Below are positions 11,901 through 35,025 of a stretch of 64,000 nt of DNA, in pieces. The stretch lies in the NCBI GenBank assembly GCA_949293815.1, contig CASFEZ010000018.1:28048-92047 (forward strand), in the 5' to 3' direction. Position numbers and translations under genes: made by a program. Below the pieces are notes generated by a model, which worked only from the letters and a program-made list of their open reading frames with translations, was not told the origin of the DNA and ran no database searches. Source of the DNA: an uncultured Eubacteriales bacterium (GTDB lineage: Bacteria > Bacillota > Clostridia > Oscillospirales > Acutalibacteraceae). Numbering within the stretch: the stretch's first letter is position 1; each line of letters opens with the position of its first letter.

Positions 11901-14900
11901 AATCCTCGCCGATCAGCGCGTCAATCTTTTCCGCGTTGCCGGGGTACTTTACAAGATCCAGCGCCAAGCTCAGAAGCACGGTCAGCGTATCCGCTCTGGT
12001 GTAGCGAATGGCATCCTCAGGCGCAGCACCCTGGTGCTGCGAGCCGGAGAAGCTGATGGTCTGACGCTGATTGTTCAGGAATACACTCTTGGATTCTTCC
12101 GTCACAATGCCGCTGTAGTAGAACAGACCTTCGAGCGCATAGGACAGCACATCGGAAACTTCAATACCGGTGAAGGCTTCTACCAGCGCATAGACCGCGT
12201 TCATATCCAAATCGCGGACATCAATCATAAAGCGGGTTTCATCTTCGGGGTCATAGTCCTCGTTCATGCCGGCTGCCGCTTCGTCAATCACATCCTGAAG
12301 CAGCGCGTTGATATCCAGATTGTAAATCGGACGGATGGTGTCCAGCAGAACCGCGATGGGTTTTACAAGGTTCAGCACTGCGCTGGACAGACCGCCGCTT
12401 TGCAGGAAGTACAGCAGACCGGGAGCAACATCGAGAATCTGACCGACCATATCCTCTGCGGTCCAGTCGTCAATCTTCTGGAACAGGGTATTTACAATGT
12501 AATGCAAACCGCCTGCGGCATCCAAACCGAACTGAGCGGCATATTCTTCCTGCGTCAGCGCGTCATCTACGCCGAGGGCTTCCACCAGCGGCAGGATAGC
12601 TGCGTCATAGGTGTCATAGCCGAGCACCTCAATGGCGCCGTTAAACAGGGAGATATCTTCGCCCAAAAGAATACGGTTCAGAATCGGGGCAAGTTCATCC
12701 AAAACAACCAGCAGCGCCTCAACAAACAGGTCGCGGTCGCCATCTACAAGGGTCGTGCCGTTCAGCGTCCAGACAACGGAGCCGTCCGCCTGCATTTCGC
12801 CGACCAGACCGCCGAGCTGCGCTTCTGCACGAACAAAGGTTACATCACCGAATGCAGGCATTTCCAAACCGAACAGGTCAGCGTACTGCGCCGTCCAGAT
12901 ACCCATATCCACATCAAACTGATTGCGGATCAGGTTGCCGATGGCGCCGACGCCGGCAGCGCCGAGATTCTCGGCAAGCGCCTTGACCAGAGCGGTCAGG
13001 TTATTATTGGTAAACAGGGAGTTCAGCATGTCGTTGAGCCATTCGCCCACTGTCTTGCCGTCGGTAGTGCCTGCCAAAGCGTCATTCAGAACCGCTTCGA
13101 GATTATCCACCACACCAAGGGCGGCAGCTTCATCCCAGTCGTTGGTATAGTACAGATATGCATAAGAGAAGTCACCGGCAGCAATGCCATCGGTCAGAGC
13201 ATCATCATTGGTATACCAGTTATAGGGCTGCATATCATAGGTCTGGGGAACCAGAAGCTCCGTCACCGCCGCCAGCGCCTGATCGGGCTGGGTGGAAATG
13301 GTGGCAAGGATCTCATCCACAATCTCCGGCAGTTCGAGCTCGGGGTCAATCATATTAAAGAGCTGACCCATAAATTCCTCATCACCGACAGCGCCAGCAA
13401 TATAATCCCACAGGACCCAGAACAGATCGGCTTTGTCGGTGGTAAAGTTGATGCGGGTTCCGGATGTGCGCTGACTGGATGCGTTTCGATCCAAATCCGC
13501 AGCAGTAATCAAATCGGATGCGTTCAACAGAGGAAGATCCAGATTGATACCCGCCGCCTCAGAGAGGATGTAATCAATCATCGCATTCAGGTCGGTATAG
13601 TTGAAAGGAAGCATGGAAGCAAGGGAGCCGCCAAGCAAATCACCTATATTAAGAGACTGGCTGATTTTCAGGCTGTCCTTAACAAGGTCAACAATCCACT
13701 GGGTGATGGTTTCACCAAGAGAACCACTGTCAACATCTACATCCAATCCAACATTCAGATTCAATGTAATCTGATTGACCAGATCCGTCAGCTTATCGGC
13801 CACCAGACCATAGGTCAAATTGGGCAGGATTTCCAACAGCGTGTTCAGCGGATTCGCTGTAATCTGATCTACCAGTGCCAATATGGGACTGAGCACGCAG
13901 TCCAAAATCTCCACCGTAGAAGAACTGGCATCAGGAATAGTAAAGTCATAATCCGTCAGACCGAGCGCTTCATAAATCGGGATAACAAGATCCTGGAATC
14001 CGGTATAACCGCTAATAGTCAAGTTTGCGCTTGCCCAGCCGGTCAAATTATAAGGAATCCAGAAAAGAACCTTATACTCCAAGCTAACGTCCGCATAAGC
14101 GGCGTTATTTACTGTAGCGTTTAAAGGCGCATTGGCAAGCAGGGTGCGCAGCAGCGGCGTAATGCCGTCAAGGCACGCAGCCATTGCGTCAACAAAGGAT
14201 TCATAGTCCGTAACACCCCAGGTCATGGATTCCCAATCCACTTCATCCCAGTCATTCAGATCGGTATAATCGCTATCTGCCCCCTGCTGCAATGCAGCGC
14301 GAACAGCAGGATAATTTGCAATCAACGAAGACTGAGCCAGCGTGGTAGGCGTGATGCGCAAGCCGAGCTGCTCAAAGAGCTGTTCATAATAGTTTGAACC
14401 TCTGTCACCGTTCAGATACAGCCAAAGCGTACCTCTTAAGTTATCCTGCCCCAGCGAACCAAGATCCAACGGGTTCAGATCAGCGATTAGCTCGGGAATC
14501 ATGGTCATGATGGTGTCATAGATCATCGGATAGAATGCCTGCATGATCATGGTAACGGTTTCATCATTAAAGAGATTCTCATTCAGCATACTCCAGACGA
14601 ACTCGTTAAGGGTCATCACATTGCCTTCATCGTCTGTGAATATACTGTCCTCAATATTGCCGTTTTCCATCAGCTGTGCCATCAAATCGGTGAATTCCGT
14701 GGAGCCGAGGAAGGTGTCCACCTTGTTAATCAAGGTTTCCAGTGCCTGATTGTCAACGGTGTAGTCCTCACCCTCGGTGCGGGCGATATCACCGGCAAGT
14801 CCGCCGTAGCGAACGGTATAATAGCCGTTTTCGGCGTCATATTCTACATGCTGGAACTCGTCAAGGAATCTGTCCTCAAACTGTTCCACCAAAACCAACA

Positions 14901-16890
14901 GGTTTTCGAGCGCGGCGTATTTGGTTCTCAGATCCTGGGTCAGCAGAGAGGAATAGTTGGTGTTCAAATATTCATAAACATCGTCCTCCACAGCATTGAC
15001 TGCGGATTTAATCATCGTAAAGTTTGCCAAATCAACAACCACGGAACCGCTGCTGACAACATCCCAGCCGCCTGCCGCGTTGATTGCGGTTTCGACTTCA
15101 TTGGTCAGAACGGTAGCCAGACGCACGGGCAGCGCATCGAGGTAAGCGGCGATTTCCTCGCCGAAATCCGCAAACTGCGACAGATACCCTTCGGGCAGCT
15201 GCGCTTCATACTGGGCGTATACGCTCAGATATTCATTGTATTTTGCCGTATCATCCGTAATCATATTGCGGATATTGGCAGTGGAATACAGATACAACTG
15301 ACCATTGTTGGCCTGATTGATTAAAGGCGTAAAGTAAGTCACATAAGGCGCAAGAGCCGCTTCGGCTTCACGACCGACCATTTCTACGCGATAGGCTTCG
15401 CGGAAGTCGGCAACATAGCCGGTGTCCTCGGTAAAGACCGCAGCAATGACTGCATCGGTATAGGCATTGATTGCCGTTACATAGGCAGACATCTGGGTAT
15501 AAACATCCACAACCGCGGCATCGGTCATGGCTTCCATGCCGGCAGTGGGATACTGCGCCATATAATTGTCGATTTCTGCTTTCAAAGCAGCCAGATCGTA
15601 GCAGTCGATGTAATATTTCAGCGCGGCAAGTTTTGTCTGCACCGTGGCGGCATCGTAACCGTCAACCGATACATACCGTTCATAAGCCGTTACATAGCTG
15701 GTCTTAACGGTCTGCTCCATATAGTTGTAGTAGTCCGTGCCGGTGCTCAGAACTGTGCGCAGCTCGTCATTGACTTCCGCATAGGTATAATCCAGTGCGT
15801 TCAAACGATCCGCATCCAGCGTGGCAATATTCGCCATCAGCCAATCGACCTTGTCTTTATTGGCAAAATAGGTCATGGCGGAAGCGCATTCCGTCGCCCA
15901 GGCGTCTACCGCGCCGGTACCATTGGGGCCATACTGCATTCTGGCAAAGTACTGCACCACGGTATTGCTTAAAGAACCGGCAGACACTGCGTTGGCAAGG
16001 GTGTTCTGCTGGGTGGTATTGGTGTTGACCAACGCCTGCAGCTGATCCTGGGTATCAAACGAATAGGTCTCGTAGGGGTCGGTTGCAAGCAAAGCAGTGG
16101 TGAAGTAGTCCAGATATGCCTCCAGCGTGGCAATATTCGTATTCGCTGTGGAAGCATTGCGGGTAATGGACATACCGCTGAAATACTGCCAGGCCTGCCG
16201 GCGATAAAAGATCTTATCGCTGGAGCACGCCCCGCCGTCTTCCTTACGGGTCGTGTCTTTTCTATATACATTTGAAGATACAGTGATACGATAGGAGGTT
16301 TCCACATTTGCGGGCACCTGATCGATGCTGTCGTAGCCCAGAATGGCATTATCACGGGATCTCGTCACCGTAATATTGACCGCAGCAGGAGCGGAAGGAC
16401 CGGCAGGATAACCGCCCTCCTGTTCCTGATTAAACTGATTGCTTCTGGTGTAACTGAAATTGCTGTTGTTGACAATGGTGTCAACCAGCCTATCCAGCGC
16501 GGTTTTTACGGAACCGGAATATACCGAACCGAGATTGGACGCCAACACGCTGTCCATGCGCGAATTCAGTTCTGTCGGATAGTTATACGAAGAACCGCTG
16601 GCTTTGCCCATTTCCGCGTTGATAATGGTATACAACGCGGCTGTGACATTCCAAATCGCGCCGGATGTGGTATTGTCCGTAATGGTTCGGGTTGTGGAAC
16701 TCGCGTTGCCGCTAACGGAGAAGTTACCGGTGTTCAAGTCCGAACCGGCGGCCGTAACCGCATTTCTCAGGGTATTCCACTGTCCTGCATTAGCAGCCGC
16801 GCCTGCGATGGTCGGCAGTGTTGCCGTCAGGCACGAGAAAGCCATCAACACAGCGAGGAACACGCTGAGGACTTTTTTCGTCACTTTCAT
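8962..16890 (-). CDS. Giant secreted protein (2642 aa) of unknown function with four diverged tandem ~440-aa modules
   Basis: Uninterrupted 7.9-kb ORF. Start trimmed to ATG 16890 (AAGGAAG RBS 5 nt upstream). N-terminus MKVTKKVLSVFLAVLMAFSCLTATLPTIAGAAA is a Sec signal peptide. The protein is D/E/N/L/A-rich. I recognised no LPXTG, SLH, cohesin or dockerin. Confidence 0.85.
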   Translation of the reverse strand: MKVTKKVLSVFLAVLMAFSCLTATLPTIAGAAANAGQWNTLRNAVTAAGSDLNTGNFSVSGNASSTTRTITDNTTSGAIWNVTAALYTIINAEMGKASGSSYNYPTELNSRMDSVLASNLGSVYSGSVKTALDRLVDTIVNNSNFSYTRSNQFNQEQEGGYPAGPSAPAAVNITVTRSRDNAILGYDSIDQVPANVETSYRITVSSNVYRKDTTRKEDGGACSSDKIFYRRQAWQYFSGMSITRNASTANTNIATLEAYLDYFTTALLATDPYETYSFDTQDQLQALVNTNTTQQNTLANAVSAGSLSNTVVQYFARMQYGPNGTGAVDAWATECASAMTYFANKDKVDWLMANIATLDADRLNALDYTYAEVNDELRTVLSTGTDYYNYMEQTVKTSYVTAYERYVSVDGYDAATVQTKLAALKYYIDCYDLAALKAEIDNYMAQYPTAGMEAMTDAAVVDVYTQMSAYVTAINAYTDAVIAAVFTEDTGYVADFREAYRVEMVGREAEAALAPYVTYFTPLINQANNGQLYLYSTANIRNMITDDTAKYNEYLSVYAQYEAQLPEGYLSQFADFGEEIAAYLDALPVRLATVLTNEVETAINAAGGWDVVSSGSVVVDLANFTMIKSAVNAVEDDVYEYLNTNYSSLLTQDLRTKYAALENLLVLVEQFEDRFLDEFQHVEYDAENGYYTVRYGGLAGDIARTEGEDYTVDNQALETLINKVDTFLGSTEFTDLMAQLMENGNIEDSIFTDDEGNVMTLNEFVWSMLNENLFNDETVTMIMQAFYPMIYDTIMTMIPELIADLNPLDLGSLGQDNLRGTLWLYLNGDRGSNYYEQLFEQLGLRITPTTLAQSSLIANYPAVRAALQQGADSDYTDLNDWDEVDWESMTWGVTDYESFVDAMAACLDGITPLLRTLLANAPLNATVNNAAYADVSLEYKVLFWIPYNLTGWASANLTISGYTGFQDLVIPIYEALGLTDYDFTIPDASSSTVEILDCVLSPILALVDQITANPLNTLLEILPNLTYGLVADKLTDLVNQITLNLNVGLDVDVDSGSLGETITQWIVDLVKDSLKISQSLNIGDLLGGSLASMLPFNYTDLNAMIDYILSEAAGINLDLPLLNASDLITAADLDRNASSQRTSGTRINFTTDKADLFWVLWDYIAGAVGDEEFMGQLFNMIDPELELPEIVDEILATISTQPDQALAAVTELLVPQTYDMQPYNWYTNDDALTDGIAAGDFSYAYLYYTNDWDEAAALGVVDNLEAVLNDALAGTTDGKTVGEWLNDMLNSLFTNNNLTALVKALAENLGAAGVGAIGNLIRNQFDVDMGIWTAQYADLFGLEMPAFGDVTFVRAEAQLGGLVGEMQADGSVVWTLNGTTLVDGDRDLFVEALLVVLDELAPILNRILLGEDISLFNGAIEVLGYDTYDAAILPLVEALGVDDALTQEEYAAQFGLDAAGGLHYIVNTLFQKIDDWTAEDMVGQILDVAPGLLYFLQSGGLSSAVLNLVKPIAVLLDTIRPIYNLDINALLQDVIDEAAAGMNEDYDPEDETRFMIDVRDLDMNAVYALVEAFTGIEVSDVLSYALEGLFYYSGIVTEESKSVFLNNQRQTISFSGSQHQGAAPEDAIRYTRADTLTVLLSLALDLVKYPGNAEKIDALIGEDSNIMQTIVTLLNYENPDLVVQEPDWFYMVEFDPDAENLADFIASSRDYSGDTISYLRYAYEAKGNLWTESSADFLSKNIVKIIDMIVEAERGADLNTVLANEFANGKLYSEYNLQKLGYMLGDLLNQVPESYLNIIGVVVDVDLDYYKQFTVDPDESLKDVILSNEEFAARLADMLEPAAPLLDWLLFGKDYKFFYGKDGSDAIVLAGTEGYTTGLAPILEALQITAPNPADYDEPGVATMAEDVFLAIMAKIDEICNAGDGEAALQVMLNHLPNLIYFMNAGGVTAAVNNLLMSVNALVEAAAPLTGMDGNLTDLINDLIADSGITLDLNEISFATVGDIVKDLVGLNIQDAVSVTINDENGNPVEYNYLGDLFVGELVENTETVTGMRYFRAMPTADGTTQRDVLTVILCAALDVLQYPENKDTVVGWFGENVYEGIMNLFSMTGDGAYQDVNWLYTDGNGNILDEYKDKVFSPLKDNDGTFNYGYDEYWTREKATYVADNLNDFINGLIKLLGVQIDGVNLEDIGDIIEQLIGENLYTNANAASLAKTVADLVAQFSDYEDGIITDALKEVLDVDLTVYEKYAGGDYDFGIETGNKEQFTDAIVELLMPIAPILKVVLTGEDLSLLVDKEGNNAITVYGAEGYKYAVIPVLEALDRDNPNIKTAEEYYADIENDPEALIRDILVPVFDFLDYVLEDPMNNLLASMPSLVYFINSKGLDTAFKNIVRPVTDVLTAIEPITGPVNLYDVIGIDLATVDFEYLFNMLVDMLGEGLGEELVPAVGNAISDMTMGKLVTFTSKNGKQAVTMEYVEGDANLAGSADMLTIILRFALKWITMPENQETVKSLITQYIPDAEAAEYVIGTYETLVSYLNKDHGINMMLGVLYYIFYGLDIAVDETNDWFDDVNGKWKFIMDLFDQAESDYLINFGDALDKLFGITDDVIDEDGIASSGLVPFFQKIINFFKTIIEWLRSLFGLN
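9300..14300 (-). repeat. Protein-level tandem repeat region of the giant gene (4 modules, period ~1.30-1.40 kb)
   Basis: Conserved cores: VIPIYEALGLTDYDF (~13921-13992), ILPLVEALGVDD (~12562-12597), LAPILEALQITAP (~11220-11272), VIPVLEALDRDNP (~9901-9960). Each is followed ~50-60 aa later by a LPNL(I/V/T)YF(M/I/L)N/QxGG(L/V) box. The outer boundaries are approximate. Confidence 0.6.
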
Positions 16891-17347
16891 AAAATCTTCC
16901 TTTGCTAAAAAGTAGTATTGTTTTATCCGTCCCCCTCCGGGGACGCCGGAAAGCATTTGCGAGAGGCAATCACTCCGTTTCTACCAATGATGGATCTGAA
17001 TAAATTAACATCTTATATATACATCCTGCATAAAGCAAAATGATAAACAAGTTGTTACAAGACTTTGAATCAATGTTACAGAAATTTACGCTTCTTTTTT
17101 CGCTCAAAAGCCCCCGTTATCCGGCGCCGGACATTGTCCGGAACCAAATACGGGGGGCTCATTGGAAACACAGGCGGAGATACCCCCCAAAAAACAGGGA
17201 ACTGCCGCTGTCACCCTAAGATAATAATACCAAACTGTGAATTTTCTGTCAAGACCATTTGACCGAACATCTGTCTATTATCACTGTTTTTTTCGCCCCT
17301 CCCCCACCAATTTTACCGGTTATTTCCACATTTTCCGCCTCCGGATA

Positions 17348-17471: not shown

Positions 17472-19265
17472 TTATTCATCCTTGGGGAAATAATCCAAAA
17501 GGTCTACTGCGTAACGAAGAATATAACGCGCATCGGTAGAATTGATTACACCGTTACCGTCTACATCCGCGTTCTCCCACTGGGCGCCGCTGAGCGTAAC
17601 CAATTCAACGGCGGCACGCAGCGCCAGACGGGCATCTTCTGTCGTAACATAGCCGTCCAGATTCACATCACCGGTAATATTATAATCGGGCGCTTTCAGG
17701 AAGCGGTCGTTAAAACGGTCATACTCGATAAACTGCGGATAATAGCCGTTGTCGCGAATGGTGCGCTGTTCATCCGCAAAGACCAGCCAGGAAATAAAGT
17801 AATAGGCATCCTGGCTCTCATAGTGCAGGTAATCGTTTTTCAAACCTTTGATAAACCAGGTACTCTCCGGCAGTGCGCAGGTAGAAGCATCCGTACCAAT
17901 CGTATGCGTGTCACTGACCTGTACATCGGTATGGTTATGACCATCGTCGATAACCTGCTCCACCAGATCCTTGCCAACCCAAACATCATTCAGATAAGCG
18001 CAGGTTGCGCCGAAGCTGGAATACTTGGTATCTACAATACCGTCGGAATTTTCAGAAGAACCCTTGTTGGAATCCAAACCGTCATACACAGGCAGCGCCT
18101 GAATATTGTAGCCGGAAACCACCGCTGCATGCACACCGGCTTTCTGGGCATTTTGCAGCGTAGCGCCTGCGGTGCGCTGCACCTCGTGGAACTCATCGAT
18201 TTTGTTTTCCAGCGTGGCGTTCATATGCAGCTGATTGCCTTCGCTGTCTGTATACATAAATTCTTTTGCCTGGTCAAAAATCTCGTCATCTTCCGTCCAG
18301 GGAATCAGCGCCCACAGACCAGCGGTGTAGCAAAGAATTTCACGGGCGTACTGATCATACAGCCGATCCAGTTCATGAATCAGATAGGCATCGATGGTGG
18401 CAACCGCGTGATACAGCTCCCATTCTTTATTCAAAATATAGTTCGTAAGCCAGAATGCGAAAGCAACGGGGACATTGTCGGGCTGGTCGTTGATCCAGCG
18501 AACCACACCGTTGGGGTCAACATCGATATTGCCGGTATACAGCGCGCCGATGGTGGACATGCCCTGAGCGGTGGAATTAATCAGCACATAGTTGTCAACC
18601 GAAGAGAAACCACGCGGCTCCTGATACTTTTTCATATAAGCGGAGGCAACATTCGCACCCATGCCCTCAGCAAGAATATTGACTTTATCTTCGCCGGTTT
18701 CTTCCAGCACGGTATCCTCAATGAACTCGTCCAGCTCGGAGGCAAGATCCATGGGGGACAGGCGCCAGTCGTAAGAGAACACATAAACCCTGTCATAACC
18801 TGCCTCGGAAGCGCAGATTTTGCCCAAATCACCGGCGATGCTGTCAATCAGGTCGGTATTTTTCTGGTAATATGCCAGCGAATGGGTCAGCTTTTTCACG
18901 CCCACATTGGTTTTGGGCGTGCCATCGTTATTACAGGGGATATATTTGAAAAAGCTGGACACTTTGGGTCCGATATAATCGGTAACCTCTTCATAATACC
19001 CTTCGCCCATCATGGTATACAAAGAAATGATTTCGGCAAGCGTAATCGCGTCATTGGTAACAGGCGGAAAAACCTGCTCCGCGCGGCTGGACTCGGGGTT
19101 AATAAAAAGCGGGTTGTTCTGCCACCCGTTGATTACCACAACGGGATTAGCCCCCTGAGAGGTAACCAGCGTCGGCGCAGAGGCTGCGGCAGCGGTTACG
19201 GGGAAAATCATCAGCATTGACAAGCAGAGGACAATGCAGATGACCTTTTTAAGGGTACTTTTCAT
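17472..19265 (-). CDS. Secreted LCAT/lipase-like alpha/beta-fold protein with C-terminal type-I dockerin; nucleophile motif apparently degenerate
   Basis: Start trimmed to ATG 19265 (AAGGAGG RBS). Signal peptide MKSTLKKVICIVLCLSMLMIFPVTAAAA. LCAT-family hallmark YDWRLSP. Where GHSMGG is expected the sequence reads AEGMGA. The C-terminus has two dockerin Ca-binding repeats, DVNLDGYVTTEDARLALRAAV and DVDGNGVINSTDARYILRYAV. Confidence 0.75.
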   Translation of the reverse strand: MKSTLKKVICIVLCLSMLMIFPVTAAAASAPTLVTSQGANPVVVINGWQNNPLFINPESSRAEQVFPPVTNDAITLAEIISLYTMMGEGYYEEVTDYIGPKVSSFFKYIPCNNDGTPKTNVGVKKLTHSLAYYQKNTDLIDSIAGDLGKICASEAGYDRVYVFSYDWRLSPMDLASELDEFIEDTVLEETGEDKVNILAEGMGANVASAYMKKYQEPRGFSSVDNYVLINSTAQGMSTIGALYTGNIDVDPNGVVRWINDQPDNVPVAFAFWLTNYILNKEWELYHAVATIDAYLIHELDRLYDQYAREILCYTAGLWALIPWTEDDEIFDQAKEFMYTDSEGNQLHMNATLENKIDEFHEVQRTAGATLQNAQKAGVHAAVVSGYNIQALPVYDGLDSNKGSSENSDGIVDTKYSSFGATCAYLNDVWVGKDLVEQVIDDGHNHTDVQVSDTHTIGTDASTCALPESTWFIKGLKNDYLHYESQDAYYFISWLVFADEQRTIRDNGYYPQFIEYDRFNDRFLKAPDYNITGDVNLDGYVTTEDARLALRAAVELVTLSGAQWENADVDGNGVINSTDARYILRYAVDLLDYFPKDE

Positions 19266-19432
19266 GGGAAAATCCTCCTTATGTATATACATCCGATATC
19301 ATTATACAATAGACTTTTCGATTTTTCAACTGTTTTATCAGCAAATGGTTAAAATTTTCATAAATTGTTTGCGCTTTTTGTGGCGGTGTGGTATATTTTA
19401 CTATAGATTTTTCTGCATATAGGAGGTCGCCT

Positions 19433-27815: not shown

Positions 27816-28797
27816 TTGGTATACTCCCATATCCGTCCGCAGAAGGCTTCTGCGTTAATTTGATAAACGCCTCCACCGCTTTGGTATAGCGCTGCGGGTC
27901 GATATAATAGCTTCTTGCGTGCGGTGCGCCGGGAATGGTCAGCCGGTATTTGTCGGTCGTACAGGCATCATACAGCTGCTCCAGCATATAAACCGGCACA
28001 AAATCATCCGCTCCGCCGTGTATAAACAAGATGGGGCATTTGGCAAACTTCACCGCGTGCAGGGGCGAAGCGTCCCGAAAGGAATACCCGCAAATATGCC
28101 GGTTCAAAAAATCACAGACCGGCAACAGGGGAAATTCAGTCAGATGAAAAGAGGCTTTCATCTGATAGGAAAACTCGTCCCAGGCAGAGGTGTAGGAGCA
28201 ATCGGCAATCATGCCCCGAATATCCGCCTCCGTTCGGTTGTCCCGACTCATCATCAGAACCGTGGCGGCGCCCATGGAAACGCCTAAAAGATATCTTTCC
28301 ATATCCGGGAAATTTGTTTTTGCATATTCCACCCATAAAAAGGCATCCCGGCTCTCATGTGTGCCATAGCCCATATAGTCGCCGTCGCTGTCGCCGCAGC
28401 CCCGGTGGTCGGGCAGAATCAGCGTATATCCCAGCCGGAAAAAATCCGGCGCAAAAAAACAGAACTCCCCTTTGCCGCTGCTGCGCGCGCCGTGGCAGGC
28501 GATAATCAATTTGCCGTTCGGTCTTCTGGGCGAAAGCACCAGAGCGCGCAACTGTGCGCCGTCCCCGGCGGTCAGCTCCACCCGCTGCAAAGGCAATGAT
28601 AAAAACCGCTTTTCCGCCTCGGCGGCATCGGCGGCATAGGCATCCGGCATTTCGTTTCCCTTTATCCATTTCCCCAAAAAGGCGGGCAGCGAAAAGGTCT
28701 TTCGATTCACCAGCTGGCGGCGAATCAATTCGGCAATCAAAAACAACAACCCGACAGCCAAAAGAAGGAGCAAAAGGATAAGCAGAAAATATCGCAT
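27799..28797 (-). CDS. Membrane-anchored alpha/beta hydrolase
   Basis: N-terminal TM helix [28 protein letters not shown] oxyanion region, nucleophile elbow GVSMGA, and late HGGADDFV. Start at ATG 28797 (GGAAGGTG RBS). Confidence 0.8.
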
Positions 28798-28906
28798 AAA
28801 AACACCTTCCATATGATACCTATGATACAGGAAACTTTCACAAAAATCAAGACGAAAAATACTTTGCGCAAAACGGATTTCATCGGAACACGCCCGGCGA
28901 TGCTGT

Positions 28907-28915
28907 ATATACTGT
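28907..28915 (+). promoter_or_regulatory. ATATACTGT box upstream of the split collagen-like gene (possible -10 of a sporulation-sigma promoter)
   Basis: The identical 9-mer occurs at a similar distance upstream of the second collagen-like gene (29934-29942). It loosely resembles the SigK/SigE-type -10 element (CATA..TA). Confidence 0.25.
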
Positions 28916-28962
28916 TACGGGGCGGAAAACGCCTCGCATTTTTACGGATAAGGAGGTTATTT

Positions 28963-29796
28963 ATGAATCCATATAACAATATATTCGGCAACTGCGGCTG
29001 TTCCTCGCGCGATTCGTCTCAGCAGCAATCGGCGCAGAACGCTGCGGCGGTTCAGGCGGCGCAAGCTGCAGCACAGGCAGCGCAGGCAATCAACTGCAAT
29101 AACTGCTGCCAGCCTGTCTGTCCTCCTCCGGTGACCTGCTGCTGTCCGGGTCCCACCGGTCCTACCGGTCCACAGGGTGTACCCGGTCCGCAGGGACCTC
29201 AGGGAATCCCCGGGTTACAGGGAGTTCCGGGGGCTGTCGGCGCAACGGGTCCCACCGGTCCGCAGGGGATCCCCGGTCCGCAGGGAGCGACCGGTCCTAC
29301 CGGTCCGCAGGGTATTCCCGGTGTTCCGGGGGCAGCGGGCAGAATTGGTGACATTGGTCCCACCGGTCCCACCGGTGCAACAGGTCCGACAGGTGCAGCC
29401 GGCGCAACAGGTCCTACCGGTCCGCAGGGAATCCGCGGTGTTGACGGTGCAACAGGTCCTACCGGACCTACCGGTCCGCAGGGAATCGCCGGTGCCGATG
29501 GACCTACCGGTCCCACCGGACCTACCGGTCCGCAGGGCATAGCCGGAACCACCGGTGCAACAGGACCCACCGGTCCTACCGGTCCTGCCGGAACCGGCGC
29601 CGCAGGCGCAACAGGTCCTACCGGTCCCACCGGTCCTACCGGTCCTGCCGGAACCGGCGCCGCAGGCGCAACGGGTCCCACCGGTCCTACCGGACCTACG
29701 GGTGCAGCGGGCGCTGCGGGCGCAACGGGTCCTACTGCTCCGTTCATATATGCACAACAAGCGTCATATCCTGTGCTCAAAACTTTACATACATAA
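28963..29796 (+). CDS. Collagen-like (BclA-type) spore-surface protein, 5' segment of a split gene (277 aa as encoded)
   Basis: AGGAGG RBS 6 nt before the ATG. Cys-rich N-domain ([15 protein letters not shown]), then 196 aa of uninterrupted GXY (GPTGPQ...). The frame leaves the repeats at ...[10 protein letters not shown] and stops 12 codons later with no C-terminal globular domain. Confidence 0.85.
29149..29736 (+). repeat. Collagen GXY triplet repeat DNA (GGN-CCN-ACN rich)
   Basis: 196 consecutive Gly-X-Y residues, including a near-identical 60-bp duplication ([20 protein letters not shown] x2). Confidence 0.95.
29751..29757 (+). repeat. Left copy of the 7-bp direct repeat TGCACAA (putative crossover core, attL)
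   Basis: Read in frame as (TA)T GCA CAA in the 5' gene segment. An identical heptamer lies at 33202-33208. Confidence 0.7.
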
Positions 29797-29933
29797 ATCG
29801 ACGCTTATATTCTATCCGACCGGCTCAGTCACAGTTGGTTATCCTCTTATTTGCGGCAAACATCGTTTTCTTAAGACAGCCTGCAACATCAAAAGTAAAA
29901 ATGCTTTCAAGGAACTATTTAACCCTTTCAAGA

Positions 29934-29942
29934 ATATACTGT
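29934..29942 (+). promoter_or_regulatory. ATATACTGT box upstream of the element-borne collagen-like gene
   Basis: Same 9-mer as at 28907-28915. Located 30 nt upstream of the ATG at 29973. Confidence 0.25.
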
Positions 29943-29972
29943 GATAAACCATAAAAAGAAAGTTGGGAAAGC

Positions 29973-31016
29973 ATGTCAGATTACAACCATAACCAGCCTT
30001 ATTTCAGTTGTCCCCTTTGCAGCTGTAATTGTCTGGATCGCGTTTTGGGACCGACAGGACCGCAGGGCATCCCGGGACCGCAGGGGACAACGGGTCCAAC
30101 CGGACCGCAAGGAATACAGGGGAGCGACGGACAGCAAGGTCCACAGGGACCAACAGGACCCACCGGTCCCACCGGTCCCACCGGCGCGCAGGGAACAACG
30201 GGACCAACCGGTCCACAGGGGATACCGGGGGTTGACGGTCAGCAGGGCGCTACGGGTCCGACAGGACCGCAGGGCATCCCGGGTATTGACGGGGAACAAG
30301 GTCAGCAGGGACCTACCGGTCCCACCGGGGAGCAAGGTGCTGCCGGACCAACGGGACCGCAGGGTGCACAGGGTATTGCAGGACAGCAGGGACCTACCGG
30401 TCCCACCGGGGCACAGGGTGCTGCCGGACCAACGGGACCGCAGGGTGCACAGGGTATTACAGGTCAGCAGGGTCCTACCGGTCCCACCGGGGCACAGGGT
30501 GCTGCCGGACCAACGGGACCGCAGGGTGCACAGGGTATTGCAGGTCAGCAGGGTCCTACCGGTCCCACCGGGGCACAAGGTGCTACCGGACCAACGGGAC
30601 CGCAGGGCACAATGCCTGATGATTCTTTTGCTTCTTTTATCGATTATCAGATGCAGCTTATGCCGAACAGCCTGATTGTTCTGTTCCCGGATATAACGGA
30701 CACTACCGGCAACATCACCTCCGCCGATTTGACGCATATCAGCCTGGCACCAGGGTATTATCTGATAAGCTATGAAGTCTCAGTGGTGTTTAATTCTGCC
30801 AACTATATGCAGGTAACACCGTTTTACAACGGCGCACCGCACCTGGAAACAGGGATTTATTTTGCAACCCGCACCGATGGCTCCAGCGCCTGCGGATCCG
30901 CTTTTTTCATCCTATACGCGCCCGCTGCGACGGAACTTTCCTTTACCTACTCCGGTTCAGCCGAAGGGCGGGACGGTCAGATCACACTGACCATTTTGAA
31001 ATTGCGCCGAAATTAA
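29973..31016 (+). CDS. Collagen-like exosporium-type protein with BclA/C1q-like C-terminal domain (intact, 347 aa)
   Basis: Short Cys-rich N-domain ([10 protein letters not shown]), 187 aa of GXY, then a ~135-aa beta-rich C-terminal domain ([20 protein letters not shown]...[10 protein letters not shown]). Confidence 0.88.
30303..30608 (+). repeat. 81-bp tandem repeat, ~3.8 copies, inside the collagen region
   Basis: Unit [25 protein letters not shown](A/T)G. Copies 2 and 3 differ at 2 of 81 nt. Confidence 0.9.
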
Positions 31017-31032
31017 AAAAGAACACCGGTAT

Positions 31033-31077
31033 AAAGCAGACGCCTGCCCCATCGGCGCAGAGGCGTCTGCTTTATTG
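31033..31077 (+). terminator. Intrinsic terminator of the element-borne collagen-like gene
   Basis: AAAGCAGACGCCT-(15-nt loop)-AGGCGTCTGCTTT followed by ATTG. 13-bp perfect stem. Confidence 0.75.
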
Positions 31078-31146
31078 CCCCGTTCTTCATACGGTACAAG
31101 TCGTAGCGCATATTCTGTAGCATGATAATACCGGGAGGGAAAGCAT

Positions 31147-31401
31147 ATGCCAAGCAAAGCGCAGCTTCAACAAATGCAGGGCGTTGATATAACGCAGACA
31201 GACCGCAGCACGTTGGTTGATATTCGCAATATCCATATTGACCTTTCTTTGCCCGCGGCAAAGAAAATGCAAAGCTACTTCGAGCAGATCGGGAATCCCT
31301 ACTGTTTTCTTTGCGGCAGCACACCCGTAAAAATACGGTTCGTAGCAGAAAATAAAACATTGAAGCAATCCCTGTACGACTATTTTTCAAGTCTGAAATA
31401 G
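31147..31401 (+). CDS. Small conserved-looking protein (84 aa) immediately upstream of the serine recombinase; candidate accessory/directionality factor
   Basis: GGGAGGGAAAG RBS. The sequence ...IGNPYCFLCGSTPVKIRF... resembles, from memory, small ORFs often found just upstream of clostridial large serine recombinases. Confidence 0.6.
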   Translation: MPSKAQLQQMQGVDITQTDRSTLVDIRNIHIDLSLPAAKKMQSYFEQIGNPYCFLCGSTPVKIRFVAENKTLKQSLYDYFSSLK

Positions 31402-31482
31402 CCTGCCTGCATCCCCTGCCCTTACAGAAAACCTTGTGATCCTTGGGCAGCAGTCCTGTACTTACAGGGAAAAGGAGGGTTT

Positions 31483-33147
31483 ATGCCCCGCATACGCAAA
31501 GACAAAATGACACAGCATGCGACAGAACCGTTTTGGAAAATCGGACTGTACATTCGACTGTCCAGAGAGGACGAAAACGAAGACAAGAGCGAGAGCATCA
31601 TCAATCAGGAAAAGATACTCCGCGACTTTACAGACAGCTATTTTGAGCCGGGTACTTTTGTCATTGCGGATGTATTTGCCGATGACGGACTGACAGGCAC
31701 CGACACAGCGCGACCAAACTTCAAACGACTGGAGAGCTGCATTGTCCGCAAAGAAATAAACTGCATGATTATCAAATCCCTGGCGCGGGGCTTCCGCAAC
31801 CTGGCTGACCAGCAAAAGTTTTTGGAGGAATTCATCCCCCTGCACGGCGCCAGGTTTATTTGCACCGGCGCACCGTTCATTGATACCTTTGCAAACCCCC
31901 ATTCGGCAGACGGACTGGAGGTACCGATAAGGGGCATGTTCAATGAACAGTTTGCCGCCGCCACCTCTGAAGAAATCCGCAAAACCTTCAAAATGAAACG
32001 GGAGCGCGGCGAGTTCATAGGAGCGTTTGCCCCTTATGGCTACCAAAAAGACCCAAACGACAAAAACAGATTGCTTATCGATGAAGAAGCAGCGGAAGTT
32101 GTCAAAAGTATTTATCATTGGTTTGTCAATGAGGGTTTCAGCAAAATGGGAATTGCGCAAAGGCTTAATCAGATGGGCGTGCCGAATCCCGAAGCCTATA
32201 AAAAGAAAAAGGGATTGAAGTATACCAATCCCAATTCCGATAAAAATGACGGACTGTGGTCTGCGGGCACAGTTGCTAGAATTTTGCAGAACGAAATGTA
32301 TACGGGCGCCATGGTGCAGGGGCGGCACCGGGTTATCAGCTACAAAGTACACAAGCAGATAAGCGTTCCGGAAGAGGAATGGAGCATTGTACCGGGCACA
32401 CAGGAAGCAATTATCGACAGAAAAACCTTTGAAAAAGCCAAAGCTCTGCATCAGCGGGATACAAGAACGGCACCGGGCAAGCAGAAAGTCTATTTATTGT
32501 CCGGCTTTGTTCGCTGTGCGGACTGCCAAAAAGCCATGCGGCGAAAAACCGCGCGCAAAATTGCCTACTATGCCTGCCGCAGTTATACGGACAAAAAGGT
32601 TTGCAGCAAACATACCATCCGGCAGGATGCATTGGAAAACGCGGTTTTGGCAGCGCTGCAAATGCAAATTGCCCTTGCAGATCAGCTTGCAGAAGAAACC
32701 GAACGCATCCGCAGCGCGCCTGTTCGCAATAGGGAAAACAAGCGGCTATCTGATTCGTTAAAACAAACGGAAAAACAGCTGAAACAATACTATGCCGCTT
32801 CCGACAGCCTGTACCTCGATTGGAAAAGCGGCGAAATTACCCAAGACGAATACCGCCGTTTGAAAGACAGGATTGCACAGCAGATACAGCAGCTTGAAGC
32901 GAATATATCTTATCTAAAAGAGGAAATGCAAAGTACGACTGATGATAGCAGAGCCGACAACCCGTATCTGACCGCCTTTTTGCAACACAAAAATATTCAG
33001 AGCCTGAACCGGGGAATTGTAGTTGAACTGATCAATGCGATTTGGGTGCATAAAAACGGGGAAATAACAGTTGATTTCAATTTTGCCGACGAGTACCGGC
33101 AAATGCTGGCGCGCATGAAAAACGAGCAGTGTGATTACTGGGATTAA
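31483..33147 (+). CDS. Large serine recombinase (resolvase/invertase N-domain + recombinase domain + zinc ribbon + coiled coil)
   Basis: 554 aa. Catalytic-Ser region IGLYIRLSREDENED. Recombinase-domain block APYGYQKDPNDKNRLLIDEEAAEVVKSIY. Zn ribbon CADCQKAM...YYACRSY...CSKH. C-terminal coiled-coil region. AAGGAGGG RBS. Confidence 0.92.
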   Translation: MPRIRKDKMTQHATEPFWKIGLYIRLSREDENEDKSESIINQEKILRDFTDSYFEPGTFVIADVFADDGLTGTDTARPNFKRLESCIVRKEINCMIIKSLARGFRNLADQQKFLEEFIPLHGARFICTGAPFIDTFANPHSADGLEVPIRGMFNEQFAAATSEEIRKTFKMKRERGEFIGAFAPYGYQKDPNDKNRLLIDEEAAEVVKSIYHWFVNEGFSKMGIAQRLNQMGVPNPEAYKKKKGLKYTNPNSDKNDGLWSAGTVARILQNEMYTGAMVQGRHRVISYKVHKQISVPEEEWSIVPGTQEAIIDRKTFEKAKALHQRDTRTAPGKQKVYLLSGFVRCADCQKAMRRKTARKIAYYACRSYTDKKVCSKHTIRQDALENAVLAALQMQIALADQLAEETERIRSAPVRNRENKRLSDSLKQTEKQLKQYYAASDSLYLDWKSGEITQDEYRRLKDRIAQQIQQLEANISYLKEEMQSTTDDSRADNPYLTAFLQHKNIQSLNRGIVVELINAIWVHKNGEITVDFNFADEYRQMLARMKNEQCDYWD

Positions 33148-33201
33148 GAACAAGGCAATATAACAGGCTTTCTGCGCACCGCAAAACAAAATCTACGGTT
33201 G

Positions 33202-33208
33202 TGCACAA
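33202..33208 (+). repeat. Right copy of the 7-bp direct repeat TGCACAA (attR core), embedded in the 10-bp palindrome TTGTGCACAA
   Basis: Read in frame as (TG)T GCA CAA in the 3' gene segment. The palindrome spans 33199-33208. Confidence 0.7.
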
Positions 33209-33913
33209 ATACACGGCTCTACCGGTCCCACCGGTCCTACCGGTCCCACCGGTCCTACCGGTCCCGAGGGCGCTGCGGGCGCAACGGGTACTGCCGGCGC
33301 AACAGGTCCCACCGGTCCTACCGGTCCCGAGGGCGCTGCGGGTGCTGCGGGCGCCGAAGGTCCTACCGGTCCTACCGGTCCTACCGGTCCCGAGGGCGCT
33401 GCGGGCGCGACGGGTGCTGCGGGCGCCGAAGGTCCTACCGGTCCAACAGGACCTACCGGTCCAACCGGTCCCACTGGTCCTGCCGGTGCCGGTCTTGTCA
33501 CCAATGCGGTTAACGCTGCCAATGATGCAGCACAAGTGCCGACGGCTGCCGGAAATGCGCTGAACTTCTCGACCTTGAATGTCAACAGAGGAACAGCCAT
33601 TACCCATATCCCCGGCACCGGACAGTTTAATATTCTGGAAAGCGGTCCGTATGAAATCAGCTATGCCAGCACGGCGGCCAAGGCCTGTCCGTCGCAGAAC
33701 GCAACGGCGCTCCTTTCGCTGAAAATCAACGGCACAACCGTCCCCGGTTCCACAGCAAGCTCGTCTATTTCCGGCGACATACCGGCCATATCTCTTTCCA
33801 ATACATCCATTATGGAAATTACCGCACCGGCAACCCTTACGCTGAACGCGGGCAATACCGGCGCGGAGTTCTCCGCATCATCCATCACCATTAAGAAACT
33901 TGCGAATCTGTAA
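33203..33913 (+). pseudogene. 3' segment of the split collagen-like gene (GXY repeats + BclA/C1q-like C-terminal domain; no start codon or RBS of its own)
   Basis: The frame is open from 33164 ([26 protein letters not shown]...). It has 31 GXY triplets (33215-33493) and then a 139-aa C-terminal domain ([37 protein letters not shown]...ITIKKLANL). There is no ATG/GTG/TTG before the Met at 33536, which is only the ORF-track start. Confidence 0.8.
33215..33493 (+). repeat. Collagen GXY triplet repeat DNA of the 3' segment
   Basis: 31 Gly-X-Y triplets. It shares a 28-bp identical stretch (33219-33246) with the 5' segment (29618-29645). Confidence 0.9.
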
Positions 33914-33933
33914 GCAATAAGGAGAGAAACGCC

Positions 33934-35025
33934 ATGGGGAAATACCGTATCTGCGTCTACGCAATATGCAAAAATGAAGAAAAATTCGTGGAACGCTGGA
34001 TTCACTCCATGCGGGAAGCGGACGGCATTTATGTTACGGACACCGGTTCGAGCGATAAAACCGTTGCGCTTTTGCAAAAAGGCGGCGCCATCGTTCAGCA
34101 AAAAACGGTCTCTCCGTGGCGTTTCGATACGGCGCGGAACCTGTCCATGGATGCGGTTCCCGAAGACTATGACATCTGCGTTTGCACCGACTTAGACGAG
34201 GTGTTCCACCCCGGCTGGCGCAGCGCGCTGGAAAAAGCCTGGCAGCCCGGCACCTTGCGGGCGCGGTACCGCTATACCTGGAATTTCAATCCGGACGGCA
34301 GTGAGGGCGTGGTCTTTTTCGCCGATAAAATTCATGCCCGAAAGGGGTTTCGCTGGGTCAATCCCGTACACGAAGTTTTACGGTACGACGGCGGCGCGTA
34401 CCAAACCGTCACCGTGCCCGGCATACAGCTGGACCACCACGCGGACAATACAAAGTCCCGCGCCCAATACCTGCCGTTGTTGGAGCTTGCCGTTCAGGAA
34501 GACCCGCAGAACGACCGCAATACCCACTACCTGGGGCGGGAATATCTGTTCCGCGGCGAATATCAAAAAGCCATCGACATGCTGCTCCGGCACCTTTCGC
34601 TGCCCGCCGCTACCTGGGCGGATGAGCGATGCGCTTCCATGCGCTATATTGCAAAAAGCTATGACGCGATGAATAACGCAGCCGAGGCGGAGCGGTGGTT
34701 CCTGCGCGCCGAAGCGGAAGCGCCCCATTTGCGCGAGCCGTGGACGGACGCGGCACTGTTTTATTATAGGCAAAAGAACTGGCATGCCATGCTGTTCTGC
34801 TGCGAAAAGGCGCTGACCATAAAAAACCGTCCCGATACCTATATTACCGAAGCAGCCAGCTGGGGCGCATTGCCCTATGACCTGAGCGCCATCGGCTATT
34901 ATTATACGGGCGATCAGAAAAGGGCTGCCAAAGCGATAGAGCAGGCGCTTGTCCTGGCACCGCAGGATGCCCGGCTGCAAAAAAACCACCAGCTGATTTT
35001 AAGCGGACAAACGCAGAATACATAA
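33934..35025 (+). CDS. Glycosyltransferase (GT2-like N-domain) fused to TPR repeats
   Basis: ICVYAICKNEEKFVERWIHSMREADGIYVTDTGSSD...CVCTDLDE (DxD-like) in the N-terminal half. The C-terminal half has TPR-like repeats (YLGREYLFRGEYQKAIDML, AIGYYYTGDQKRAAKAIEQAL). AAGGAGAG RBS. Starts 20 nt after the collagen gene 3' segment. Confidence 0.75.
   Translation: MGKYRICVYAICKNEEKFVERWIHSMREADGIYVTDTGSSDKTVALLQKGGAIVQQKTVSPWRFDTARNLSMDAVPEDYDICVCTDLDEVFHPGWRSALEKAWQPGTLRARYRYTWNFNPDGSEGVVFFADKIHARKGFRWVNPVHEVLRYDGGAYQTVTVPGIQLDHHADNTKSRAQYLPLLELAVQEDPQNDRNTHYLGREYLFRGEYQKAIDMLLRHLSLPAATWADERCASMRYIAKSYDAMNNAAEAERWFLRAEAEAPHLREPWTDAALFYYRQKNWHAMLFCCEKALTIKNRPDTYITEAASWGALPYDLSAIGYYYTGDQKRAAKAIEQALVLAPQDARLQKNHQLILSGQTQNT

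Follow-up and report, generated by a model that had tools for sequence, protein, structure and literature searches.

A putative miniature integrative element with a large serine recombinase gene interrupts a collagen-like gene in an uncultured Eubacteriales bacterium

A collagen-like gene in two parts

We analyzed a 64,000-nt stretch of DNA (hereafter the window) from an uncultured Eubacteriales bacterium (GCA_949293815.1, contig CASFEZ010000018.1, positions 28,048-92,047 of the forward strand), in which a collagen-like gene, the target, is interrupted by a 3,487-bp element of three genes, one of which encodes a large serine recombinase (LSR). The window is chromosomal, with a ribosomal-protein/secY cluster inside its 64 kb. 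The parts of the target and the genes of the element, with coordinates counted from the first letter of the window, are as follows:

28963-29796, + strand: 5' open reading frame (ORF) of the target, 277 amino acids (aa); AAGGAGG upstream; a Cys-rich N-domain, then Gly-X-Y (GXY) repeats
28963..29735, + strand: 5' part of the target proper, a Cys-rich N-domain of ~61 aa and GXY repeats; it terminates at the crossover AC and joins 33223 in frame
29736..29796, + strand: element-encoded tail of the truncated product, 20 codons and a stop (translation)
29973..31016, + strand: collagen-like cargo gene, complete, 347 aa, with its own N-terminus and a conserved C-domain of ~135 aa; Pfam Collagen
31147..31401, + strand: DUF6870 protein, 84 aa (Pfam PF21757, E=1e-27), a candidate recombination directionality factor
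31483..33147, + strand: LSR, 554 aa, with Resolvase, Recombinase and Zn_ribbon_recom domains
33223..33913, + strand: 3' part of the target, GXY repeats and a BclA_C-like C-terminal domain of ~140 aa (open frame, Pfam)

In translation, the 5' ORF exits the GXY repeats and reaches a stop 12 codons further on, and a frame without a start codon, open from 33164 to 33913, encodes more GXY repeats and a C-terminal domain. Both parts had been described in a first-pass annotation of the window, and both descriptions were borne out. The 5' ORF has its ribosome-binding site, Cys-rich N-domain and collagen repeats (Pfam Collagen, E=1e-28), and the start-less frame has its own collagen repeats (E=4e-14) and a C-domain with a weak match to Pfam BclA_C (PF18573; E=2e-7, 31.4 bits, under the 38-bit gathering cut-off). 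A BclA_C assignment is also precomputed in the protein collection for fragment P0241, and a sequence search of the PDB matched no solved BclA structure. By inspection, the Cys-rich N-domain (CGCSS...) does not contain the Bacillus-type N-terminal exosporium-targeting motif, in the form that we take that motif to have. While the element is integrated, the host protein is truncated before its C-terminal domain.

The recombinase matches PF00239, PF07508 and PF13408, all above their cut-offs, and carries the motif YIRLSRED with the catalytic Ser; the solved structures nearest to its catalytic domain are 3g13, from a conjugative transposon recombinase, and TnpX. None of the three genes of the element encodes a relaxase, a sigma factor, a helix-turn-helix (HTH) protein or a transfer function, and no origin of transfer (oriT) was found among them. 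The cargo had been called a paralog of the target, which stands for the collagen stalk and not for the C-domains, between which BLASTP finds no similarity. Searching the PDB by sequence gave nothing significant for the cargo C-domain or for DUF6870.

Crossover position and attachment sites

The features at the two junctions, all of them on the + strand of the window, are these:

29710..29733, + strand: left arm of the bacterial attachment site attB (B), GGCGCTGCGGGCGCAACGGGTCCT, coding for G-A-A-G-A-T-G-P; it fits the consensus of 20 left arms
29734..29735, + strand: crossover dinucleotide AC in attL, the sole sequence common to attL and attR in 7/7 elements
29736..29757, + strand: left end of the element, the P' arm of attP, TGCTCCGTTCATATATGCACAA; in the interrupted gene it is translated as APFIYAQ
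33199..33220, + strand: right end of the element, the P arm of attP, TTGTGCACAAATACACGGCTCT; conserved 3' of the recombinase stop in ~60 loci
33221..33222, + strand: the same AC in attR; in the window the two sites share CTAC
33223-33246, + strand: right arm of attB, the start of the 3' part of the target

For comparison we used 80 genome loci with recombinase homologues at 39-85% identity, together with L001 (93%) and L002 (81%); many of these loci are metagenome-assembled genomes (MAGs), and their host assignments may carry binning errors (a Collinsella MAG is an example). Both ends are known for seven elements spanning 3.2-11 kb (the window element, L024, L028, L035, L037, L047 and L048), and five metagenome contigs are conspecific with the window, among them L088, which matches the window at 98.4% over 18 kb, as well as L001 and L091; these two also span the right junction.

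In the window, attL reads GGGTCCT-AC-TGCTCCGTTCATATATGCACAA and attR reads TTGTGCACAAATACACGGCTCT-AC-CGGTCCC. The two inner arms, one of them inverted, match at 15 of 22 positions (counted by eye) and make up a 46-bp imperfect-palindrome attP. At the left end of the seven elements the P' arm is conserved, as the inverted counterpart AC-TG[C/T][C/T]CCGT..ATATATGCACAAC. On the right, nearly all close relatives continue from the recombinase stop to ...AATGTTGTGCATAAATA[A/C]ACGGCTCT-AC, and the hosts diverge only beyond it. The sequence through ACGGCTCT-AC is conserved alongside the recombinase gene in dozens of unrelated hosts; because it is kept even beside non-collagen flanks, the stretch TGCA.AA...ACGGCTCT is element DNA rather than host DNA. 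Four relatives of the recombinase in IMG/VR have the same right junction, and the predicted attP was found in no viral contig.

A scan of metagenome contigs for TTGTGCA.AAATA....GG.... AC ......CCG....TATATGCACAAC led to L083, in which an intact attP, TTGTGCATAAATACACGGCTCT-AC-TGCTCCGTCAATATATGCACAAC, lies directly 3' of a 560-aa recombinase gene. The P and P' arms, which stand at opposite ends of the integrated elements, adjoin each other in this free site.

The proposal that precise excision would restore one ORF held in silico, with a corrected junction. Joining the two parts of the target at the AC gives an ORF of 487 aa with uninterrupted GXY repeats (...GAAGATGPT at the junction); the predicted attB after excision is GCAACGGGTCCTAC followed directly by CGGTCCCACCGG, and the predicted attP is ACACGGCTCTAC followed directly by TGCTCCGTTCATAT. 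In 7/7 elements whose two ends are known, the same join produces a single open frame that runs from an N-domain through continuous GXY repeats into a C-domain. This architecture, foreseen for the joined product, also occurs in full-length members of the target's C-domain family, which has 121 representatives in 1.8 billion proteins and in which the domain is C-terminal in every case. Ten members were inspected (8 complete, with an N-terminal domain): the N-domain is mostly Cys-rich and is followed by a GXY stalk and the C-domain, with the stalk broken by a globular insert in some of them.

The first-pass annotation had placed the recombination core at the heptamer TGCACAA, for an element of 3,451 bp and a product of 499 aa. 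The heptamer is present at 29751-57 and 33202-08, and a join there is in frame, but it is not the core. Its copies lie within the two inverted arms of attP, and it is absent at attR of the conspecific contigs, where L088 has CGCATAA (in TTGCGCATAA) and L001 and L091 have TGCATAA (in TTGTGCATAA); the 7-mer repeat is therefore peculiar to the window strain. Joined at that point, the conspecific sequences run into GCA TAA, a stop. A join at TGCA creates an in-frame stop, GCA-TAA, in 6/6 elements outside the window. The attP of L083 contradicts the heptamer model as well, because both arms adjoin there, with 36 bp between the two TGCA motifs.

The orientation of insertion also follows the central dinucleotide. 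In large serine recombinases such as those of phiC31 and Bxb1, the non-palindromic central dinucleotide alone sets orientation, and here AC and GT behave likewise. In a tally of all motif matches, which includes a few spurious or conspecific ones, with central AC the collagen gene shares the strand of the recombinase in 34 cases and lies on the opposite one in 0, with 13 lacking a collagen flank (<4 GXY); for central GT the corresponding numbers are 1, 12 and 4. Such a split is hard to get by chance. It explains the L002-type loci, which had at first seemed anomalous in being inverted, and TGCA, which is palindromic, could not have set an orientation. The single GT site on the recombinase strand (L026, 10281-10330) reads GTT, a Val codon, in G-A-V-G-P-T of the GXY repeat, and it too fits the dinucleotide rule.

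Two other schemes were considered and dropped. One was a palindromic GC/TGCA crossover that would have explained both orientations, which the AC versus GT result replaced; the other was a shufflon or inversion system, given up on finding that the repeats are direct and that both ends behave as attL and attR. In its dimensions the system resembles the phiC31, Bxb1, A118 and SPbeta integrases, which likewise combine an attP of ~46-50 bp, with imperfect inverted arms, and a shorter attB.

Target preference and relatives of the recombinase

The clade to which the recombinase belongs prefers collagen repeats. At least 6 GXY triplets occur within 450 nt of the recombinase stop in 51/77 relatives, compared with 10/239 control windows from the same loci, and the preference extends to relatives at 39-50% identity, in which the outer att arms differ and GGCTC[C/T]-AC-CGG persists. 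The attB consensus, GGcCCtACcGGcGCcACnGGcGCa-AC-aGGtCCgACnGGn (from 20 left arms and 41 right arms), codes for consecutive Gly-(Pro/Ala)-Thr triplets, with its information concentrated at codon positions 1 and 2 and almost none at position 3. The window itself holds 18 (G[P/A]T)3G sites, all within three collagen segments, and shuffled sequence holds none. The specificity for collagen repeats is a strong preference and not an absolute rule.

Taken with the site anatomy, these observations make it likely that the window holds a 3,487-bp miniature integrative element whose LSR uses (Gly-(Pro/Ala)-Thr)n-coding DNA as attB and which is integrated at the AC of a Thr codon. The mechanism would be that of a standard LSR integrative element, whose att and domain features, as far as they can be tested in silico, are present here. 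For integration, the recombinase would cross attP with the attB of a collagen gene at the AC of a Thr codon in a BclA-like gene. For excision, it would cut attL and attR at AC, rotate and rejoin, probably with the help of the co-transcribed DUF6870 protein as directionality factor, leaving a seamless GPT-GPT junction and releasing an attP-bearing circle. In the integrated state the host gene is truncated and the element's own collagen-like gene lies in the same orientation, the likely effect being that one surface fibre protein is replaced by another.

Several findings weigh against this interpretation. The free attP comes from L083, a relative at 84-85% identity, and the contig scan found none for the window element. 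The first-pass annotation had proposed a search for uninterrupted orthologs; no uninterrupted allele (empty attB) of the target gene was found, and 5/5 conspecific contigs are occupied. In the search for such an allele, the 487-aa joined ORF matched mainly unrelated collagen proteins, and the sole match to the C-domain alone was a fragment of 125 aa, whose 897-bp contig starts inside the element end. A look-up of the upstream hydrolase returned only one contig, broken off inside the collagen repeats, and neither the window recombinase nor the glycosyltransferase/TPR protein downstream has an exact match on record. About 13 AC-type relatives lie in non-collagen flanks, which still start AC-NG[G/C]NCC. 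Single-sequence AlphaFold models were unusable, with predicted local distance difference test (pLDDT) scores of 49 for DUF6870 and 47 for the cargo C-domain, and it is from the gene layout that insertion would appear to remove the host C-domain and supply another collagen-like protein instead.

Right junctions of the AC type with non-collagen flanks were seen in L006, L008, L011, L013, L014, L019, L034, L049 and L055, one of them in the Collinsella-labelled MAG; they could represent secondary (pseudo-attB) sites. GT-type elements have entered collagen-like genes (L002 at 11466-12317 on the - strand and 12418-13278 on the + strand; also L029, L032 and L036) with an N-domain of the type MS.PSFP..., which resembles a neighboring gene listed as Pfam A_ENA (PF26595); these genes encode collagen-like proteins of another class than the Cys-rich one of the window. 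In L033 (2598-6351) and L036 (11723-20151), the host segment in between begins and ends in collagen-like genes, which looks as if two elements had entered neighboring collagen genes, or stood in tandem or nested. Inside the cargo gene of the window element (30147-30184) are two attB-like (G[P/A]T)3G sites, at which further copies could land or the element's own attP could recombine intramolecularly.

The recombinase falls in a clade of Clostridia, with relatives at 39-93% identity. A DUF6870 gene stands directly 5' of the recombinase gene in 64/76 loci, and the identity of DUF6870 falls in step with that of the recombinase, as would be expected of a specific protein partner and candidate directionality factor. 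Known directionality factors make contact with their recombinases in the region of the coiled coil and the second DNA-binding domain (PMC12286644). Relatives at 84-85% identity occur in Hungatella, Clostridium fessum, Flavonifractor, Zhenpiania, Lentihominibacter, Diplocloster, Coprobacillaceae and other hosts. L005 (85% identical), the one relative whose upstream region was examined, has a MobA/VirD2 relaxase and a polyvalent ArdA/ArdC anti-restriction protein. Because close relatives lie in distant Clostridia and L005 carries a relaxase, integration of a mobile element into a preferred attB is the simpler reading of the locus. The recombination module of the window element would then be the same as that of larger, relaxase-bearing elements of Clostridia, whose transfer and regulatory genes the window element may either have lost or never had.

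Among characterized systems, the clostridial elements Tn4451 (TnpX) and Tn5397 (TndX) and CTn2, CTn5 and CTn7 of C. difficile likewise have the recombinase gene at the element end and a 2-bp crossover. The structures nearest to the catalytic domain, and the relaxase and anti-restriction genes of close relatives, point to the same clostridial conjugative elements. The window element differs from these in lacking a relaxase, a mobilization gene and TnpV, in its collagen-repeat target, and in having DUF6870 instead of TnpV/Xis (PMC3158075). Phage LSRs are more distant: the window recombinase is at most 44% identical to any in the phage collection, annotated phages and plasmids yielded no recombinase above that value, and the attB of the window clade differs from theirs in that positions 1 and 2 of the codons for a protein repeat define it, which gives many sites per genome. 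The best phage record, L092 (MT837700.1, 'Bacteriophage sp.', 6.3 kb, from human faeces), has a Sigma70-like gene, DUF6870 and an LSR (44%), with no phage genes and no collagen gene on it; several similar 5-7 kb 'Bacteriophage sp.' records were among the matches and may be non-viral elements.

In literature searches, whose coverage does not extend to subscription journals, we found no paper that links serine recombinases to collagen-like genes (alone or together with sporulation) and none that mentions DUF6870. The window element is one of a widespread and apparently undescribed family of elements, which target the Gly-Pro-Thr repeat DNA of collagen-like genes. If the target is indeed read at the level of codons, it would offer a landing site in many Clostridia and constitute a new class of integration target, a protein-coding repeat recognized through codon positions 1 and 2. 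Such a target may explain why 84-85% identical modules are found across Lachnospiraceae, Oscillospiraceae and Coprobacillaceae. Collagen-like genes of gut Clostridia are insertion hot spots, and apparent split pseudogenes and contig breaks in them may often be these insertions. The 46-bp attP, the attB consensus and the candidate directionality factor DUF6870 of this uncharacterized LSR group are also candidate parts for genome engineering, a field in which such parts are in demand.

Cargo, promoter-like motif and the possible control of excision

The arrangement of three genes is also found in L028 (uncultured Clostridia), L037 (Candidatus Ruminococcus gallistercoris) and L048 (a Lachnospiraceae MAG). 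Among these mini-elements the cargo C-domain is 76-86% identical, the length of the stalk varies, and in every case the cargo gene points the same way as the host gene split by the element. If the layout reflects a swap of fibres, three-gene mini-elements would knock out a host collagen-like protein of the spore or cell surface and express their own, which suggests that mobile elements remodel that surface.

Two features of the element lie between the cargo gene and the DUF6870 gene, and one gene lies beyond the target:

31035..31077, + strand: terminator-like hairpin and T-run just 3' of the cargo gene; the inner five pairs (31054-31070) come from a hairpin scan
31089..31112, + strand: promoter-like motif ATA-N17-CATA (ATACGGTACAAGTCGTAGCGCATA), 58 nt 5' of the DUF6870 start codon
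33934..35025, + strand: GT2/TPR glycosyltransferase gene directly 3' of the target (Pfam Glycos_transf_2 and TPR), outside the element and given as context

Reading of the sequence itself gave the longer stem of the hairpin, in which 31035-31045 pairs with 31061-31071. From the truncated host ORF to the start of the cargo gene, the window shows nothing that resembles a terminator.

The motif ATA-N17-CATA stands 5' of the DUF6870-recombinase operon in 56/62 relatives, compared with 3.3% of control windows. In nearly all of the 56 loci it lies 51-66 nt 5' of the DUF6870 start, it persists where DUF6870 is only 28% identical, and GTACAAG or GGACAAT occurs within its spacer. It does not look like a sigma-A promoter; as a promoter-like sequence it is compatible with a mother-cell sigma factor and equally with an element-encoded one. 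It resembles what we take to be the sigma-E consensus (ATA ... CATAcanT), a mother-cell promoter type, and the spacer resembles what is presumably a SpoIIID box (GGACAAG-like). Taken together, a clade that reads the codon-invariant positions of (Gly-Pro/Ala-Thr)n as attB, a fibre-swap cassette, and excision regulated from a conserved non-sigma-A promoter form a combined picture that we put forward tentatively, as possible rather than probable. Were excision regulated in this way, it would occur either in the mother cell, as somatic gene restoration, or when a co-resident conjugative element provides the signal, and the conserved motif makes developmental and element-controlled excision directly testable against each other.

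The first of these, a sporulation-specific intervening element with the corrected junction, would stay in the germline, with excision limited to the mother cell and driven by a sporulation sigma factor, so that the spore-surface gene is whole again when it comes to be expressed. In skin (SpoIVCA, sigK), skinCd (CD1231 and CD1234), SPbeta (SprA/SprB, spsM) and gin (GirC/GirX, gerE), an LSR, usually with a small partner, likewise removes an element that splits a coding sequence, and precise excision restores the ORF; gin, with 31 genes, illustrates that such elements need not be prophages (PMC5595907). Several observations would suit a similar role. The target, with its BclA_C-like C-domain (a weak match) and the GT2/TPR glycosyltransferase gene behind it, which also follows the target in L001 and L088, has the look of a spore-surface gene; the site is occupied in all five conspecific contigs, with the 3' fragment intact wherever it is covered; the conserved motif is not of the sigma-A type; and the directionality factor of C. 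difficile skin is sigma-E dependent (PMC5025042). However, the same motif is found on relaxase-bearing relatives that encode their own Sigma70_r4 protein, and excision confined to the mother cell would not serve transfer. The spread of close relatives across distant hosts points instead to horizontal mobility, the sampled ORFs of the window (a sample of the whole) include no sporulation genes, and the 17-nt spacing from ATA to CATA is at or beyond the long edge of the range for sigma-E (PMC517825). Developmental timing is established for skin, SPbeta and gin and is hypothetical here; those elements have tens of genes against three here, and one target gene each against a repeat motif of a gene family in many hosts. 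In the literature searched, none of them is described from a collagen-like gene. On balance we think developmental excision somewhat unlikely.

The second possibility is a non-autonomous hitchhiker, made up of attP, DUF6870 and the recombinase, whose promoter is read by the sigma factor of a co-resident conjugative element and which is excised only then. The mini-elements and the large relatives share the promoter-like motif, and its presence on relatives that encode Sigma70_r4 points to a sigma factor particular to such elements, which would let the mini-element be excised in trans. In the large relatives, L083 among them, Sigma70_r4 and HTH_16 genes lie just 5' of DUF6870, and the window element lacks both. 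The order Sigma70_r4, HTH_16, small protein, recombinase is like that of Tn916 (orf7 sigma-like, orf8 HTH, xis, int), with DUF6870 in the position of Xis; Tn916 differs in having a tyrosine rather than a serine recombinase, and the mini-element in having no sigma and HTH genes. Against this account, the 64 kb of the window show no large element related to this one, which promoters the Sigma70_r4 protein recognizes is only presumed, and a mini-element with no recognizable oriT or relaxase leaves transfer after excision unexplained. We consider excision on such a signal unlikely.

A dead insertion, in which the element is unable to excise and the gene halves are decaying remnants, would agree with the absence of an empty site for this element among the conspecific contigs and with the fact that no circle of it was observed, but we judge it improbable: the element retains an intact recombinase, DUF6870 gene and pair of att arms, a 230-codon 3' frame is kept in all conspecific contigs that cover it, and variant or mosaic elements at the same site suggest turnover. 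Least credible of all, with a chance close to nil, is excision at TGCACAA, which for all that the 7-mer is found at both positions and joins in frame would remove 3,451 bp and leave an APFIYAQIHGS break in the collagen stalk, and no IYAQ-type interruption occurs in the ten C-domain family proteins inspected.

Turnover is suggested by the conspecific contigs, in which the element diverges more than its flanks at the same site. L088 is 93-97% identical to the window in parts of the element and 98-100% in the flanks. In L001 the flanks are 96-100% identical, and the recombinase gene is 82-92% identical in its 5' half and 99-100% in its 3' half; aligned in full (L001 43-1707 with window 31483-33147), it is a mosaic of a 5' 1.2 kb at 82-92% and a 3' 400 bp at 99-100%. 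This pattern suggests recombination among element variants, or possibly variant replacement, at one chromosomal site.

Some further observations concern sequences near the genes described above. The stretch 5' of the cargo start (29935-29972, GAATATACTGTGAT) is kept in all four mini-elements and resembles 31109-31120 (GCATATTCTGTA), which forms the downstream half of the promoter-like motif of DUF6870; one sigma factor might serve both. In the leader of the target, a GC-rich hairpin followed by a T-rich stretch lies at 28918-28936, just 5' of the ribosome-binding site, and an Rfam scan of 28000-35000 matched no RNA family. Elsewhere in the window, a 2,664-aa ORF (8962-16956, - strand; not scanned against Pfam) has the look of a secreted or surface protein and a 606-aa protein (17472-19292, - strand) contains a dockerin, which together suggest a cellulosome-type host of the Oscillospiraceae/Ruminococcaceae.

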